From an uncultured Bacilli bacterium (lineage in GTDB: Bacteria; Bacillota_I; Bacilli_A; RF39; UBA660): a stretch of DNA of 64,000 nt. Below the pieces are notes generated by a model that did not search any database, was not told the DNA's origin, and was given only the letters and a program-made list of their open reading frames with translations. The translations under genes and the position numbers were made by a program. The stretch covers positions 25,316-89,315 of the forward strand of contig CANQDM010000001.1 in NCBI GenBank assembly GCA_947591505.1, read 5' to 3'. The first letter of the stretch is position 1. Each line of letters begins with the position of its first letter. Shown piece by piece: positions 2,747-48,053 of this stretch.

Positions 2747-4297
2747 TTATGCCTTTTCTTCGTGATATTCTTGTTCCGTATTTACATTCCAAATATTATC
2801 TTTATTCTTTTCTCCATTCAAAATGTTTTTAACTGTTTCAAAAGATGTAACCATTGAATGATCCATATTATTATATCTATGTTGGCCATTTCTACCAACA
2901 CAATAAAGATTATTATAATTATTTAAATAATTAATTAACTTATCAATACTTTGATAGGTATCGAAATATGCTGGATATGCTTTCTTTACTTTTTCGCGGT
3001 GCGCATCTAAAACATCTTTTTCATCAATTATTCCCATTTTTATTAGTTCATTTTTGGCAAATTCAATACATTTTTTATCACTTAAATTCCAAAATTCATC
3101 GCCTTCGTTACAGAAATATTCTAAACCAATCCAGATTGTTTTATCAACATTTTTAACCATATAAGGGCTCCAGTTGTTAAATATTTGAATTCTCCCTAAT
3201 TTAACATCTGGTTCTTGAACATATATCCAACAATCTGGTACTATATTTCCTAATGTTTTAATATCAGTTTCATTTTTTAAATTCAATTTTTTTACTAATA
3301 AACCAACGGTAACAAAATCACGATAAGGAAGGCCAACCGCTATATCATGAATATCTTTTGGCACATCATTCATACCAGCAATTAAATCTTTAAGAGGCAT
3401 ACTAGAAATAAATATATCGCCACTTATTTCTTTTTCTTCATCTCCTACTTTACAAATTACAGATTTAATTCTATTATTCTTTTGCTTAATTTTAATTACT
3501 GAATGATTCTTTAAAAATTCCCCCCCCGATTTTTCAATTTTATCTGCCACAGTTTCCCAAAGCTCTCCTGGGCCATACTTAGGATATTTAAATTCTTCAA
3601 TTAAAGATGTTTCAACATTTTTACTTTTTATGTGAAATACTTTTTTAAACATATCTTTTATTACCGCAGAAATTGATAATCCTTTTACTCTTTGACTACC
3701 CCAATCTGCGGATATTTGCGATGGATGTCGACCCCATAATTTTTCCGTATATTTTTCAAAAAACATACTATATAATTTCTTACCAAAACGATTTATATAA
3801 AAATTTTCTAGAGAATCTTCTTCTTTTTTAATTACTGTACTTTTTAAATAACTACATCCTGCAGTAAAAGTTCTACCTAAGCCCATATTCTTAAAAGTTT
3901 GGAATTTCATACTAATAGGGTAATCAAAGAATTTCTTTAAATAATAAATTCTTGATACCCGATGACGAAGTAACATTACTTGATCTTCTTTTTCGGGATC
4001 TGGTCCACCTTTTACTAAATTCTTCTCTCTTTTTAATTTTTTATCATCATATGATGGCTTACCTTGGGTTGGCATAACTTCTTCCCAAAAATTAATAACA
4101 TCTTGATCTTTAGAAAAGAAACGATGACCACCTATATCCATTCTGTTACCTTTATATCTAACAGTTCGAGAAATACCTCCTACATCTTTAGATTCTTCTA
4201 AAATAACTACTTCATAATCTTTACTTTTTTTAAGTAGTTCATAACCAGCAGTTAAACCTGCTGGACCTGCCCCAATAATTACAACTTTCTTCTTCAT
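2747..4297 (-). CDS. NAD(P)/FAD-dependent oxidoreductase (amine-oxidase/UDP-galactopyranose-mutase-like superfamily)
   Basis: 516 aa. N-terminal Rossmann dinucleotide motif [17 protein letters not shown]...E(x)GG. Embedded in the glycan locus. Confidence 0.6.
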
Positions 4298-4306
4298 AAA
4301 TACCTC

Positions 4307-6280
4307 CTATTTCACCACTTTATAAAGAATTTTTCTTGCGCCAAAATTCCAAATAAATACTAATAATGTCGATATAATCTTACTCAATAAATAATAAATA
4401 CTACATATACTTGTAAATATCCAAATTAGTAAAGTATCAATTCCTAAACCTAACACACCTATTATAGCATAAATAATAAATTCTTTTCTTTTAGTTATAC
4501 TTGTTTTTTCTTGGAAAACAAACTTTTTGCTTAATAGATAATTAACTATTAATCCCAAAGTAAATGCTAAAATATTTGATATTATATAGTGTATCCTAAA
4601 TAAATCAGTAAATACATAAAGCATACCAATATTAACAACTGCAGCTATGCCACCAACAAATATATATCTTATAAATTGAATAAGGGTATTATCTGTTTTA
4701 TCTGTAAAATACTTTTTCATTAATTTTTTCGTTTTTGATTCTTTATTTGATAAATCTTTTGGCATAAAATTAGATAAACTATAAATTAATAATGGTAAAG
4801 CACAAATTGCTTGAGAATATACAAATCTATACTCTTCTCCTGTTATAAGCAACATTATAACTGCCGTATTAGAAAGAACTAAAGCAAAAGGCAATAAATA
4901 TTTAAAATTCAATTTTGCTTTTTTTAATACTAAGGCTAAAGCAAATAAAATTATACATAATCCATCACCAAAGCCATTAAAAATTAATCGCAGAGGACTA
5001 TTAGTAACTAAGTTATTATAATCAATAACATATTGTAAATACTTATTACTTATATCTTCCATAACTCCTTTTTCAGCAATTTCCCCACTATTACTATACA
5101 TTATTAAAGGAAGATTTGGATAACTACGTTCTATTTGCCAAATTGGACTAGTCATATTTAAAAACGATTTTACAAATAATGCCGGTGAATGAATAGATTT
5201 ATTAAACCATATTTTTAAAATATTATTAAAATTTTTTTCAACTGAATGCCGATAATCTTTAGCAGTATATTTTATATTATTAAAATTGCGAGGATTATAT
5301 TCAAGTTTCCAATTTTTTAACGGGGTAATATTATCTAATATTAATAACTCTTTTTCGGAAAAAGATGGTAAATCATTATTGTAATAATATGATATTTGTC
5401 CCATTAAAAGTCCAACCATTTCAGATTTTCCACCCGTTTTATTATCAATGTTAAAATATTTATATACAGGATTAAAAATTATAAAACTACTTATTAATAT
5501 AGCTCCTAAACTTATTAAAGAAAATTTTCTGAATTTCGGATAAAAAATTATAATACCTAAATATAATATAAAGAAAGTTACTATCCCGTTGTGGCGGAAA
5601 AATAATATTGGTAAACTACTAATTATAAACATAATTTTATTTTTATGATTTTTTAACCATTCACCATCACTTATAACAATATTTATCATATATAATGTTG
5701 CTAAAAATATTCCCCAAGAAAAAGTTACATCCTTCCACATATATACACAATATCTTAAAAATAAAGGATTAAGAATTATTAATAATAATATTGCTAAAGT
5801 TTGTCTAAAATTCAAAAAGTTTTTTCTTAAAAAGTGGCAAAAATATAATAATATGCCAAATATGATTAAAGATTGCCAAATAACTGAAGATATTAAACCT
5901 TTATAAAATAATTGGGGCAATTTATACATTACTAAAGTGTGCATTGCGGGATGCCAATTATTATAAGTATTATTCATGGCTTGATTATATTGACCTATTA
6001 CATCAGGAGATATTGCCCCAGGATAATGGGCAATAACTGTAAATGATAATGCTAATAATATTAAACCACCAAAAATAAAATATTCCCGCTTTTTGATTTC
6101 TTTTTTATTGAAATTTATTTTACTGGCAATGCTCCAACCAAAATTAACTAAAATAAAAACAATTATAAAACATATTGCAAAAAGAAAATAATTTATACCA
6201 CTATAACTATTCCAAGTAATAGATAAAGAAAAGAAAAAAGACAATAGTAATTTTAAAAAAAGATCTAATTTATTTTGCAT
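4307..6280 (-). CDS. large polytopic membrane protein (GT-C-like/DUF) fused to a C-terminal GtrA-like domain
   Basis: 657 aa with many predicted TM segments. The last ~120 aa resemble the GtrA family: IRYIFVGGIAAVVNIGMLYVFTD...LSKKFVF. Confidence 0.55.
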   Translation of the reverse strand: MQNKLDLFLKLLLSFFFSLSITWNSYSGINYFLFAICFIIVFILVNFGWSIASKINFNKKEIKKREYFIFGGLILLALSFTVIAHYPGAISPDVIGQYNQAMNNTYNNWHPAMHTLVMYKLPQLFYKGLISSVIWQSLIIFGILLYFCHFLRKNFLNFRQTLAILLLIILNPLFLRYCVYMWKDVTFSWGIFLATLYMINIVISDGEWLKNHKNKIMFIISSLPILFFRHNGIVTFFILYLGIIIFYPKFRKFSLISLGAILISSFIIFNPVYKYFNIDNKTGGKSEMVGLLMGQISYYYNNDLPSFSEKELLILDNITPLKNWKLEYNPRNFNNIKYTAKDYRHSVEKNFNNILKIWFNKSIHSPALFVKSFLNMTSPIWQIERSYPNLPLIMYSNSGEIAEKGVMEDISNKYLQYVIDYNNLVTNSPLRLIFNGFGDGLCIILFALALVLKKAKLNFKYLLPFALVLSNTAVIMLLITGEEYRFVYSQAICALPLLIYSLSNFMPKDLSNKESKTKKLMKKYFTDKTDNTLIQFIRYIFVGGIAAVVNIGMLYVFTDLFRIHYIISNILAFTLGLIVNYLLSKKFVFQEKTSITKRKEFIIYAIIGVLGLGIDTLLIWIFTSICSIYYLLSKIISTLLVFIWNFGARKILYKVVK

Positions 6281-45163: not shown

Positions 45164-46390
45164 CTAAGCAAATATACCTAAATAATATTTCTTTTTACCT
45201 TTTTTTATTAAGTATACTTTATTATCAATAGCTGAATCTTTTGTAACCATATACATATTATCAGTTATTTTTTTATTATTTAAACTAATGGCATTACCAC
45301 TGATGAGTTCTCTTGCTTCTCTTTTAGATGAACAAATACTACTACTAACTAGTAAGTCTTCTAAAGGTAATTCTTCTTTGATAGCAATTTGTTCCATATC
45401 TTTAAAATTATCTAAAATATCACTTGCTGATAACTTAGTTATATCTTCACTAAATAAGGCTTTACTCATCATTTTGGCTTTATTAAATTCTTCTTCGCCA
45501 TGTAAGAAAGTAATTATTTCCCTGGCAAGTGACTCTTGGGCTATTCTTAGTTCTGGCTTTTCTTTATGCTTATGTTCTATTTCTTCAATTTCTTCTTTAG
45601 ATAAGAATGTCAATCTCTTTAAATAGTCAATTACTATTTCATCACTAGTATTAATTAAAAATTGATATAATTCATAACTAGATGTTTTATTTTTATCAAG
45701 CCATAGAGCATTACCTTCGGTTTTACCAAATTTAACGCCACTCGCATCAAGGACTAAAGGCATTGTCATACCATATAATTCTACGTCTTCTTTTTTTCTG
45801 GCTAGTTCTATTCCCGTTGTAATATTTCCCCATTGATCAGAACCTGCGACTTGTAAAGTTACCCCCTTATCTTTATATAAATGAACAAAATCCATTCCTT
45901 GTAAAATTGTATAAGCAAATTCACAGAAAGTTATACCTGAGTCTAATCTTCTATTAATAATATCTTTATCAAGCATATAATTAACATTGATATATTTACC
46001 ATAATCTCTTAAAAAATCGAGAATACTTAAATCTTTAGTCCAGTCATAATTGTTAACTACTTCAAAGCCAAATATTTCTTTAGCTTGTTTAGATAAACAT
46101 GCAACGTTTTCTAATACTTGTTCTTTAGAAATCATTTGTCTTTCATTTGATGGTTTAGGATCGCCAATTAAACCAGTAGCTCCTCCAATAAGAAGGATTG
46201 GCTTATGACCATATTTAGCAAGTCTAGTCGCAATCAAAAATGAGGAAAAGTGGCCAATATGCATTGAATCAGCAGTTGGATCAGTACCAATGTAAAAAGT
46301 TAATTTCTCTTCATTTAATTTTTTTTCTAACTCGGGACTACTAATATCTTTGATAAGTCCTCGCCATTTTAAATCTTCAAAACAATTCAT
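45164..46390 (-). CDS. tyrS: tyrosine--tRNA ligase
   Basis: HIGH motif (ADSMHIGHF), KMSKS-type KFGKT, C-terminal S4-like domain; 408 aa. Confidence 0.95.
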   Translation of the reverse strand: MNCFEDLKWRGLIKDISSPELEKKLNEEKLTFYIGTDPTADSMHIGHFSSFLIATRLAKYGHKPILLIGGATGLIGDPKPSNERQMISKEQVLENVACLSKQAKEIFGFEVVNNYDWTKDLSILDFLRDYGKYINVNYMLDKDIINRRLDSGITFCEFAYTILQGMDFVHLYKDKGVTLQVAGSDQWGNITTGIELARKKEDVELYGMTMPLVLDASGVKFGKTEGNALWLDKNKTSSYELYQFLINTSDEIVIDYLKRLTFLSKEEIEEIEHKHKEKPELRIAQESLAREIITFLHGEEEFNKAKMMSKALFSEDITKLSASDILDNFKDMEQIAIKEELPLEDLLVSSSICSSKREARELISGNAISLNNKKITDNMYMVTKDSAIDNKVYLIKKGKKKYYLGIFA

Positions 46391-46550
46391 AACTCATCTC
46401 TCCTTTAAATAAAAAAATTCAAAAATTAAGATTTAAGGACGAATTATTAATCCGCGGTACCACCTTAATTTATGAATTATCATACACTTTATACTTATAA
46501 CGTAAGTAAACGATTTAGCTCCAGAGTTGTAAATTCCTTCATCACTAACA
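46391..46550 (-). promoter_or_regulatory. T-box leader upstream of tyrS (T-box AAUUAAGGUGGUACCGCGG at 46452-46470; candidate UAC specifier in ...CGUUUACUUACG...)
   Basis: Near-consensus T-box sequence (plus-strand ccgcggtaccacc at 46452-46464), a GA/K-turn-like UGAUGAAGG block, and a UAC-containing loop. A sigma-A-like promoter (-35 TTGCTA, -10 TATAAT) lies at 46556-46584. Confidence 0.75.
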
Positions 46551-46634
46551 ATTCAATTATAAAATAATTTCTTTAATTTAGCAAATTATTTTTAATATTT
46601 AAGGCATTATTGACATATACCTTCTAAATTTTAT

Positions 46635-47114
46635 TCATTTTTTACAAATTAATTCTTGCTTCATTATTTTTTCAATATAATCAATATTAGTAAAAAATAA
46701 ATCGAATCCCTTACTTTTTAATATTAATAATTCTTTTAAATTACTTTTAATTTCTTTTTTGACTGAACTAACAGCTGCTGTTGGTATATTCTTTTGCATA
46801 TGTATATGATCAATATATTTTTCTATAATAGGGAAAGCATTTTGAAGTAATACTGCCTGATATTTGCCACCAATTTTCCTTATCAGTATACTCTTACATT
46901 TACCATATTTTTTTATCTTTTGATTTATGATTTTTTGATATTTACTTATTTTAGAACTTAGAGGTACTAGCCATAGTATTTCATTATTTTTTAATGCTAA
47001 ATACATTGGTCTTGTATTATCAAAATGATTTTTAAGCAATGTATTATCATTTGCAACTATAAAAAAATCTTCTTTAATATGATATAAATAGCCCTCTTTA
47101 ATTATTATTATCAC
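46635..47114 (-). CDS. ToxN/AbiQ-family type III toxin (endoribonuclease)-like protein
   Basis: ~160-167 aa. Blocks NTRPMYLAL, WLVPLSS and NAFPIIEKY resemble ToxN/AbiQ (TRPYVGIL, YLAPLTS/FAPLSS, MIPIIE). The ORF track starts at TTG 47138, which abuts the terminator hairpin. GTG 47114 is the more plausible start. Confidence 0.6.
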   Translation of the reverse strand: MIIIIKEGYLYHIKEDFFIVANDNTLLKNHFDNTRPMYLALKNNEILWLVPLSSKISKYQKIINQKIKKYGKCKSILIRKIGGKYQAVLLQNAFPIIEKYIDHIHMQKNIPTAAVSSVKKEIKSNLKELLILKSKGFDLFFTNIDYIEKIMKQELICKK

Positions 47115-47124
47115 CTCGCTTTCT

Positions 47125-47156
47125 ATTAAAAACAACAAAAAAAGGATATATCCTTA
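47125..47156 (-). terminator. Rho-independent terminator between antitoxin repeats and toxin (perfect palindrome AAGGATA/TATCCTT plus UUUUUUUGUUGUUUUU)
   Basis: 14-nt perfect palindrome at 47141-47154 followed (minus strand) by a U-rich tract. Confidence 0.65.
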
Positions 47157-47162
47157 AAATAT

Positions 47163-47274
47163 ATCCCTTTTACAACCGGATTAATTTATTACTCGCGCCA
47201 TCCGGTAGCGAGAAACATTTGACAATCGGAATAATTTATTACTCGCACCATCCGAGAGCGAGAAACATAAACAC
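47163..47274 (-). ncRNA. candidate type III antitoxin RNA: ~2.2 tandem direct repeats of ~50 nt
   Basis: 47176-47225 ccggattaatttattactcgcgccatccggtagcgagaaacatttgacaa versus 47226-47274 tcggaataatttattactcgcaccatccgagagcgagaaacataaacac (~88% identity), plus a partial copy at 47165-47175. Non-coding, sitting between a promoter and a terminator. Confidence 0.6.
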
Positions 47275-47289
47275 ATTCATTGAATGTAT

Positions 47290-47325
47290 TTAAAGTATAT
47301 TACATAATTATCTATTTTACAAGTA
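47290..47325 (-). promoter_or_regulatory. sigma-A-like promoter for the repeat RNA/toxin transcript (-35 TTGTAA, 17 nt, -10 TATACT), followed by the palindrome ACATTCA/TGAATGT
   Basis: Read on the minus strand upstream of the repeats. Confidence 0.35.
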
Positions 47326-47330
47326 TTTTA

Positions 47331-48053
47331 TTACATTTCTATATCAACGTTATGATATATTTCAGTTACATCATCAATATCATCTAACATTTTATAAAGC
47401 TTCTTAAAGTTTTCCGTATCTTCTTCATTTAATGTAACTTTATCTTTAGAAAACATACCTACTTGATCAATTTCATAGTCAACATCAGGAATAATACTTT
47501 CCACAACATCTTTTACTCTATCATGATCATTGGGTTTCATCGTAATAGTTATTTCGCCATCTTCATCTTCATAATCAATAATTTCAATACCTTCATTTAA
47601 TAACTTTTCAAATATTTCTTCACTATTTTGTGATTTAAATGTTAGTACCCCAATATAATCATAATTATAAGATACTGAATTTGTTACTCCTAGACTTTTA
47701 CCTACTTTATTAAAAGCTGTTCTTACCTCACCAACAGTACGATTAACATTATCTGTTAAAGTTTTAACAATTAAAGTAGATGCACCAGGGCCAAAACCTT
47801 CGTATACTACTTCAGAATAATCTTCGCCCCCTACACCTTTGGCTTTTTCTACTGCTCTATTGATAATATCACTAGGTACTTGACTCTTTTTGGCCTTTTC
47901 AATAATTCTTTTTAAAGTAATATTAACATCAGGATCTGGTAATCCTTTTTTGGCTGCTAGATAAATTTCTTTAGCAAAAGTTGTATAAATTTTACCTCTA
48001 GCTGCTCCCGTTTTTTGAATACTATATTTTCTAACTTCATATGCTCTTCCCAT
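47331..48053 (-). CDS. yebC: YebC/PmpR family DNA-binding transcriptional regulator
   Basis: MGRAYEVRKYSIQKTGAARGKIYT... is a highly conserved YebC N-terminus; 240 aa. Confidence 0.9.
   Translation of the reverse strand: MGRAYEVRKYSIQKTGAARGKIYTTFAKEIYLAAKKGLPDPDVNITLKRIIEKAKKSQVPSDIINRAVEKAKGVGGEDYSEVVYEGFGPGASTLIVKTLTDNVNRTVGEVRTAFNKVGKSLGVTNSVSYNYDYIGVLTFKSQNSEEIFEKLLNEGIEIIDYEDEDGEITITMKPNDHDRVKDVVESIIPDVDYEIDQVGMFSKDKVTLNEEDTENFKKLYKMLDDIDDVTEIYHNVDIEM

Follow-up and report, generated by a model that had tools for sequence, protein, structure and literature searches.

Organization of the yebC-tyrS interval

The window analyzed here is a 64,000-nucleotide (nt) stretch of contig CANQDM010000001.1 from an uncultured gut Bacilli bacterium. 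Between yebC (47331-48053) and tyrS (45164-46390), the minus strand carries, in order, a promoter-like site, a palindrome, two 50-nt repeats, a hairpin followed by seven T residues, and an open reading frame (ORF) ending at 46635. The first-pass annotation had recognized in this order of promoter, repeats, terminator and toxin a type III system, in which a protein toxin is paired with a repeat-RNA antitoxin; the sequence layout and the match of the ORF product to CptIN toxins bear this out. It had also correctly placed the locus between tyrS and yebC with no obvious mobile element, although the module proved to be an accessory insertion. The results described below indicate that the yebC-tyrS intergenic region very probably harbors an inserted type III toxin-antitoxin module of the CptIN family, chromosomal and about 700 bp long. 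Its features are as follows.

47322-47317 and 47299-47294, minus strand: probable cptI-cptN promoter, -35 TTGTAA, 17-nt spacer, -10 TATACT (9/12 matches, conserved position)
47268-47292, minus strand: 5' leader hairpin with the core palindrome ACATTCAaTGAATGT at 47287-47273, at or just after the predicted transcription start
47221-47270, minus strand: CptI unit 1, 50 nt, from Tandem Repeats Finder (TRF), unit profile and covariation
47262-47226, minus strand: unit 1 pseudoknot, from covariation; stem 1 (S1) 47262-47258 with 47246-47242, stem 2 (S2) 47255-47251 (UCGGA) with 47230-47226 (UCCGA), A-rich loop 2 (L2) 47241-47231
47171-47220, minus strand: CptI unit 2, 50 nt, from TRF, unit profile, covariation and alignment to E. 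rectale CptI
47212-47175, minus strand: unit 2 pseudoknot, from covariation; S1 47212-47208 with 47196-47192, S2 47206-47201 (ACCGGA) with 47180-47175 (UCCGGU), junction UGGC 47200-47197, L2 47191-47181
47137-47171, minus strand: intrinsic terminator at the antitoxin/toxin boundary, A-tract first, then hairpin; short hairpin AAGGAUAUAUCCUU 47155-47142, long hairpin 47171-47139, U7 47143-47137
46635-47114, minus strand: cptN, probable GTG start at 47114, 159 amino acids (aa), predicted endoribonuclease
46635-47138, minus strand: mechanical ORF, TTG start, 167 aa

Family and fold of the predicted toxin

The TTG codon of the mechanical ORF (47138) falls within the terminator U-tract, the starts of homologues align with residues 11-13 of the 167-aa ORF, and 159-aa members are present in the same 90% cluster, so the GTG at 47114 is the likelier start. 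The hairpin and U-tract reported earlier at the head of the ORF are real, but with this start they do not abut the gene. The protein scored 134 bits against the NCBIfam equivalog model NF047359 ('type III toxin-antitoxin system CptIN family toxin'; cutoff 90, E 3.6e-39), with 150 of 150 profile positions covered. Searching all PDB chains with phmmer gave 4RMO_A, the CptN of Eubacterium rectale, as the sole significant match (E 8.7e-15, residues 14-158). The score against PF13958 (ToxN_toxin) was 15.4 bits (E 0.022), under the 25-bit cutoff, and the blocks that the ORF had been thought to share with ToxN/AbiQ amount to this sub-threshold match. A PADLOC scan of the region matched 0 families.

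An AlphaFold model made with 25 homologues had a predicted local distance difference test (pLDDT) value of 85.9. The top PDB match of the model in Foldseek, and the only strong one, was 4RMO_A (E 1.4e-9, template modeling (TM) score 0.77/0.82, root mean square deviation 2.6 A, 154 columns). The next matches were MazF/CcdB chains (E about 2e-3, TMt about 0.6), and the top 50 contained neither ToxN nor AbiQ. The profile and structural comparison with ToxN/AbiQ that the first-pass annotation had proposed thus failed to show that relationship. Through its Foldseek match to 4RMO_A, the model shows the Kid-like CptN fold, which has a twisted beta-sheet core, four helices and a short unkinked helix, and the Foldseek ranking agrees with the published remark that CptN is nearer to Kid than ToxN is. 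Judged by sequence and modeled fold, the predicted toxin is CptN and not a protein of the ToxN/AbiQ type.

The numbering of E. rectale CptN (CptN_Er) was derived from primer TRB273 and the phmmer alignment, and the active-site correspondence is by sequence alignment only. The catalytic Ser51-Ser52-Arg53 of CptN_Er aligns with S61-S62-K63 (167-aa numbering) in a PLSS(K/R) motif, of which S61 and K63 are invariant in the 25 homologues.

To place the locus among its relatives, toxin homologues were sought in one genome per species, which gave 419, and the best 80 of the 419 (L001-L080), nearly all from metagenome-assembled genomes of uncultured gut 'Bacilli', 'Tenericutes' or Erysipelotrichaceae, were taken into the locus comparison. 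The window protein has a full-length reading frame and all 41 clade-invariant residues. Compared with its 95%-identical orthologue in L001, cptN has 12 synonymous and 8 non-synonymous differences, and the low ratio of non-synonymous to synonymous divergence (dN/dS 0.135) indicates purifying selection. The synonymous divergence (dS) from L001 was 0.15 for cptN (46635-47114) and 0.375 for the adjacent yebC (47331-48053), both from small counts; the lower value may point to a more recent exchange of the module or to constraints on composition.

Antitoxin repeats and covariation of the pseudoknot

TRF placed the repeats at 47168-47268 with a period of 50, 2.0 copies, 88% matches and a score of 160, and a separate repeat search gave the same pair. 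The earlier count of about 2.2 copies therefore holds for the pair and its 88% identity but not for the copy number, which is 2.0-2.1, as the 'partial copy' comprises about 3 nt (AAA, 47170-47168). A profile of homologous units matched the 64-kb window just twice, at 47268-47223 (E 7e-16) and 47220-47172 (E 8e-15). No Rfam family was found on the repeats at E up to 10.

An H-type pseudoknot formed by S1 and S2 was tested on an alignment of 116 distinct units, with the 3' partners slid by 1 to 3 columns and 500 shuffles as controls. The results showed that 85.9% of cells were paired, compared with 29-52% in the slid controls, and that 184 cells carried changes on both sides, compared with 67.5 in the shuffles, none of which (0/500) reached the observed value. 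Single pairs alternated as UA85/CG30 (1 unpaired), CG75/UA37, GC96/AU18, GC108/AU8, AU72/GC43 and CG59/UA29. The inner three S1 pairs (CGC/GCG) were invariant, and the UGG junction, the AUAAAU of the A-rich loop and AAUG at the unit boundary were nearly so. The general plan is S1 CUCGC/GCGAG, a loop 1 (L1) of 1-2 nt, five to six covarying S2 pairs, a UGGY junction and an A-rich L2 with the consensus UAAUAAAUUA(A/U). The first-pass annotation had suggested looking for a pseudoknot, and compensatory changes lend strong support to one of the H type, whose L1 is very short and whose L2 is long and rich in A.

The two units of the window differ at eight positions, one of which is a compensated change in S2 from U-A in unit 1 to C-G in unit 2, while two further differences add pairs at the S2 ends of unit 2; both units retain 5/5 S1 pairs and 5/5 S2 pairs. 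When units were taken from TRF consensus sequences, S2 seemed unpaired in many loci; this was an artifact of a consensus that mixes two different units, and per-unit analysis restores the pairing.

The 45-nt unit of E. rectale CptI (CptI_Er), read from primer CptI-WT (PMC4627078), is AAGUUUACCACUGACCGAUAUGUGGUAUAUAAAUGGUCGGGUUGA, and its positions G13, U30, G44 and A45 are consistent with the text of that paper. In global alignment to CptI_Er, window unit 2 scored 34 and the clade consensus 36, compared with 10.7 +/- 5.7 for shuffles (0/1000), and the alignment superposed the two strands of S1 (S1a, S1b), those of S2 (S2a, S2b) and L2. Both follow the order 5' tail, S1a, short L1, S2a, short junction, S1b, A-rich L2 (AUAAAU), S2b and UUG(N)A tail. 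CptI_Er was undetected by nhmmer with the clade unit profile, the relationship being seen by global alignment against shuffles alone. At the counterpart of CptI_Er G44-A45 the G is conserved but the bases after it vary, which narrows the cleavage region no further than the (A/C)AAAUG junction.

Promoter, leader hairpin and terminator

The promoter-like site noted earlier is present, and by itself (9/12 matches) it is at chance level in such AT-rich DNA, where a sigma-70 scan found 10 sites with 10.1 expected. In the majority of 73 homologous arrays, a stronger TTGAC(T/A)-17-TATATT ends 22-33 nt ahead of the first unit; the distance in the window and in L001 is 23 nt. The palindrome that had been seen beyond it is also real and corresponds to a leader hairpin, whose minimum-free-energy fold is an 11-bp stem. 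Across 66 distinct leaders of L001-L080, the mean folding free energy (dG) was -6.1, compared with -1.9 in shuffled sequences and -2.5 in control DNA taken 200 nt upstream, with a median z of -2.7. In nearly every locus such a hairpin follows the -10 element and precedes the first unit, kept as structure while the sequence differs. Going by the general RNA biology of Firmicutes, the leader may act as a 5'-terminal stem that protects the precursor from 5'-end-dependent decay.

The terminator palindrome as first spotted is AAGGATATATCCTT (47155-47142), followed by T7 (47143-47137), whereas folding favors a longer hairpin of 15 bp at 47171-47139 (-12.6 kcal/mol). The simple terminator scan demands at least 3 G-C pairs, and hence did not list it. 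A hairpin with a T-run lies 30-44 nt past the last unit in 75 of 75 distinct homologous arrays (median dG -13.8), and the stem in L001 and L002 is AAGGGTATATCCCTT, in which an A-U pair is replaced by G-C.

Repeat units across the clade

The unit profile detected a homologous unit ahead of the toxin gene in 79 of 81 loci. TRF alone misses about 40% of the homologous arrays, as their two units are often less than 80% alike; the profile search recovers them. Exactly two units were present in 80 of 90 arrays, and the period in the clade was 48-51 nt with a mode of 50. Such periods prevail among the 79 related loci, so a 50-nt unit is ordinary for the clade; the earlier proposal of a separate ToxN/AbiQ-like subfamily, based on the length of the unit, had compared it with ToxI and AntiQ where CptI is the right comparator.

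The two units of an array carried different, self-compensated S2 helices in 56 of 65 distinct two-unit arrays. Over these 65 arrays, cognate S2 strands formed 4.7-4.8 of 5 pairs, compared with 3.8 across units, and 46% of the between-unit differences lay within the ten S2 columns. The combination CCGGA/UCCGG in unit 1 followed by UCGGG/CCCGA in unit 2 recurred in L005, L007, L008, L018 and L020, and such recurrence suggests that the units are position-specific and not homogenized copies, whereas the literature describes toxIN and cptIN repeats as nearly identical. It is possible, though rather unlikely, that the two units are non-equivalent partners; such units could contribute the two different RNA chains of a single 2:2 complex or keep the precursor from mis-pairing.

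Tandem cptIN modules occur in some genomes (L025, L039, and also L040, L044, L048, L049, L073 and L080). In L025 (2821-4339) both modules are complete and the second contains four repeat units, and in L039 (2288-3501) a degenerate module of two units and a 55-aa toxin fragment lies directly upstream of an intact one.

The yebC-tyrS slot in relatives

The arrangement patatin-yebC-cptIN-tyrS is shared with L001 and L002 only, and the other 77 loci lie in different contexts. Relatives with the same flanks were fetched from metagenomes using YebC, and three contigs keep patatin-yebC-...-tyrS (L085, L086 and L087). In L085 the slot (4212-4410) has just 199 nt between the genes, with a promoter and a T-box leader, and in L087 (4212-4228) it has 17 nt, without the T-box leader before tyrS. 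The slot of L086 (4247-4958) holds a genuine ToxN (PF13958, 158 bits) and thus a different type III module, with 2.2 copies of a 35-nt repeat at 4286-4363 and its own promoter, leader palindrome (ACATAAACAAATTGTTTATGT) and hairpin. As the slot is empty or filled with ToxIN in these relatives, the module of the window is an accessory element of about 700 bp that has inserted where the slot content varies. A search around the module for direct or inverted repeats at its flanks gave none that was convincing, and no integrase was visible.

The gap between yebC and tyrS may even be an exchange site for type III toxin-antitoxin cassettes, being empty in L085 and L087, occupied by ToxIN in L086 and by CptIN in the window and L001, and by an IS605/TnpB-interrupted CptIN in L002; we consider this idea rather unlikely. 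If it were true, whole promoter-repeat-terminator-toxin units would move as cassettes by an unrecognized mechanism, with neither an integrase nor repeats at the flanks left behind.

No relative of the toxin was found in phage genomes, and only five were found on plasmids, at 30-33% identity. These plasmid ORFs, annotated as hypothetical proteins, are on NZ_CP048628.1, AP012045.1, NZ_CP075965.1, NZ_CP017963.1 and NZ_CP075963.1; the 2012 survey reported no plasmid-borne cptIN (PMC3401426).

The tyrS gene has a T-box leader of its own at 46432-46551 on the minus strand (Rfam RF00230, E 2.3e-13; its 65 bits fall short of the gathering score, 93), with a promoter TTGCTA-17-TATAAT at 46584-46556. 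It sits between cptN and tyrS, outside the toxin-antitoxin module.

Weighing of alternative readings

The assignment to the CptIN family is carried by the family and fold of the toxin, the homology of the repeats to CptI, the covariation of the pseudoknot, the regulatory layout and the purifying selection on cptN. Several observations weigh against it or against a working module. The cptN gene has no ATG start: an ATA codon stands where homologues start, and only a weak Shine-Dalgarno sequence precedes the GTG at 47114. In the catalytic triad, Arg is replaced by the clade-invariant Lys63. Several residues named as base-specifying in CptN_Er are not matched by identical ones: Tyr104 aligns with His113, also invariant in the clade, and Asp81 and Ser85 fall at G91 and a gap in a variable loop. 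Differences at specificity residues would be in keeping with a family whose enzyme and RNA co-evolve. The window protein deviates at many near-invariant positions of the clade and is at most 56% identical to homologues outside its own species group. The 5' flank of unit 1 is UUAUG where other junctions have AAAUG, so the 5' end of unit 1 may escape processing. In the sister genome L002, an insertion of 1.38 kb (L002 1404-3432; window equivalent 47059-47067) interrupts cptN at about codon 24 and encodes a 394-aa TnpB/IS605 OrfB (PF07282, PF01385, PF12323), with repeats and terminator intact, so the toxin is not essential, and selection may favor its loss. A truncated 123-aa cptN product occurs on 9 contigs.

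Some of these points fit a decaying or inactive relic, in which the toxin would no longer be made or active and the locus would have no current function: the non-ATG start, which adjoins or overlaps the Shine-Dalgarno-like GAGGTGA, the changed processing motif 5' of unit 1, and the insertion in L002 and the truncated products, to which degenerate modules elsewhere can be added, such as the 55-aa fragment in L039 and the short toxins noted in PMC3401426. However, the frame of the window gene is full-length with every clade-invariant residue kept, dN/dS is low, both units keep all S1 and S2 pairs including a compensated change between them, and the terminator stem is compensated between genomes, so that we hold decay to be very improbable. 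Even less credence, indeed hardly any, can be given to the first-pass reading of a ToxIN/AbiQ-type abortive-infection module that forms a new subfamily by its unusually long (about 50-nt) antitoxin repeat. The gene order does fit the generic type III architecture, and Pfam returns its weak ToxN match, but that match is below the cutoff while the genuine ToxN in the same slot of a relative reaches 158 bits, and the CptIN equivalog was passed. The best solved-structure match by both sequence and fold is CptN, with ToxN/AbiQ absent from the top 50 fold matches, and the repeat aligns with CptI and not with ToxI, with nothing from Rfam. The period of 50 nt is just 2 nt beyond the published 2012 cptIN range and within the overall type III range. 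The label of abortive infection is unwarranted as well: no PADLOC model matched, no such phenotype is known for CptIN, and two CptIN systems tested in E. coli gave plasmid stabilization only and no phage resistance (PMC3401426; PMC4627078, >200 coliphages).

Proposed mode of action

The architecture of CptIN, the processing of its RNA, the 2:2 complex, kill and rescue, and plasmid stabilization have been described (PMC3401426, PMC4627078). By homology with the E. rectale system, a CptIN module in the window would work as follows. The single promoter (47322-47294) would drive a transcript with a small leader hairpin followed by two 50-nt CptI units. Most transcripts would end at the hairpin/U-tract terminator (47171-47137), giving a large excess of antitoxin RNA, and occasional read-through would yield a little mRNA of cptN (47114-46635), which has a weak non-ATG start. 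CptN, as a putative endoribonuclease of the Kid/MazF fold, would cleave the precursor RNA into single units at its A-rich (A/C)AAAUG junctions, and each unit would fold as an H-type pseudoknot. The processed RNA would stay bound to the toxin and block its active site, probably in a closed ring of 2 RNA and 2 protein chains as in E. rectale CptIN.

If transcription of the locus stopped or the locus were lost, the labile RNA would decay, and free CptN would cleave cellular (or phage) RNA and arrest growth. Shut-off of transcription by phages is the model for the trigger of type III systems that came from ToxIN work. Processing, neutralization, stoichiometry and trigger are proposed here because of the homology with CptIN of E. 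rectale, and the biological role, to judge by the family, may be addiction/stabilization or phage defense.

Significance of the locus

The module is a new member of a known family, whose toxin NCBI's own annotation model would already name. The gain in annotation is that a 'hypothetical protein' and unannotated repeats become a named system, with CptIN replacing ToxN/AbiQ as the family; how type III systems are understood does not change. With 419 relatives among species-representative genomes, a large uncharacterized CptIN clade is common in uncultured gut Bacilli. The comparison of loci adds modestly new points, namely this large clade with its 48-51-nt units, the usually differing, self-compensated S2 helices of the two units, the conserved leader hairpin, and a slot that two type III families occupy in close relatives. 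The 116 distinct natural units are a ready-made mutational map of CptI that could guide experiments on RNA-toxin recognition: S2 and the outer S1 pairs vary as long as pairing is kept, whereas the S1 CGC/GCG core, the UGG junction, the AUAAAU of L2 and the AAUG junction are fixed.

Comparison with known toxin-antitoxin systems

The type II toxins MazF, Kid and CcdB share a core fold with the window model (Foldseek E about 2e-3, TMt about 0.6), as PMC4627078 reports for CptN, but their antitoxin is a protein, RNA repeats are absent, and at the sequence level there is no significant similarity.

ToxIN (Pectobacterium atrosepticum pECA1039; Bacillus thuringiensis pAW63) and AbiQ/antiQ (Lactococcus) belong to the same type III class and have the same order of elements. 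Like theirs, the window toxin would be an endoribonuclease of broadly the same fold and would process the repeat RNA of its own locus, with a pseudoknot as the antitoxin. The toxin family differs, as the window protein stays under the PF13958 cutoff that the ToxN of L086, as a positive control, exceeds with 158 bits. Their repeats are 34-36 nt long in 2.8-5.5 copies, compared with the 50-nt period of the window, and their pseudoknots have a triplex core and assemble in a 3:3 triangle. ToxIN_Pa and AbiQ have been shown to cause abortive infection, which no CptIN system has.

TenpIN (Photorhabdus luminescens) also has the type III architecture, with repeats of 39-57 nt, a range that includes 50, in about 2 copies, and non-identical repeats with an A-rich stretch have been reported for it (PMC12283969). 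Its toxin is of another family: the only curated family match of the window protein is CptIN, and no relationship to TenpN turned up, though no test was aimed at it.

The nearest system is CptIN of E. rectale (PDB 4RMO; Rao et al. 2015, PMC4627078), together with the cptIN family (Blower et al. 2012, PMC3401426). Among the differences, the window toxin is about 27% identical to CptN_Er, with Lys in place of Arg in the triad, His for Tyr104, and Asp81 and Ser85 not conserved. The CptI repeat is 45 nt long in E. rectale and 40-48 nt across the 33 founding cptIN loci (PMC3401426), compared with 50 nt in the window, where the 5' tail is longer, the junction is a 4-nt UGGY (UGGC in unit 2; UAU in E. 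rectale), L2 has 11 nt instead of 9, and S1 has 4-5 pairs. The window units are not near-identical and differ mainly by compensated S2 changes. The conserved leader hairpin ahead of the array in the clade of the window may be a further difference. The two systems are alike in being chromosomal, in having a homologous toxin with a PLSS+basic active-site motif, and in the succession of two tandem repeats, an intrinsic terminator and then the toxin, and the window unit can be aligned to CptI_Er, whose H-type pseudoknot it shares in outline, including the very short L1 and the long L2, which is rich in A and contains AUAAAU.

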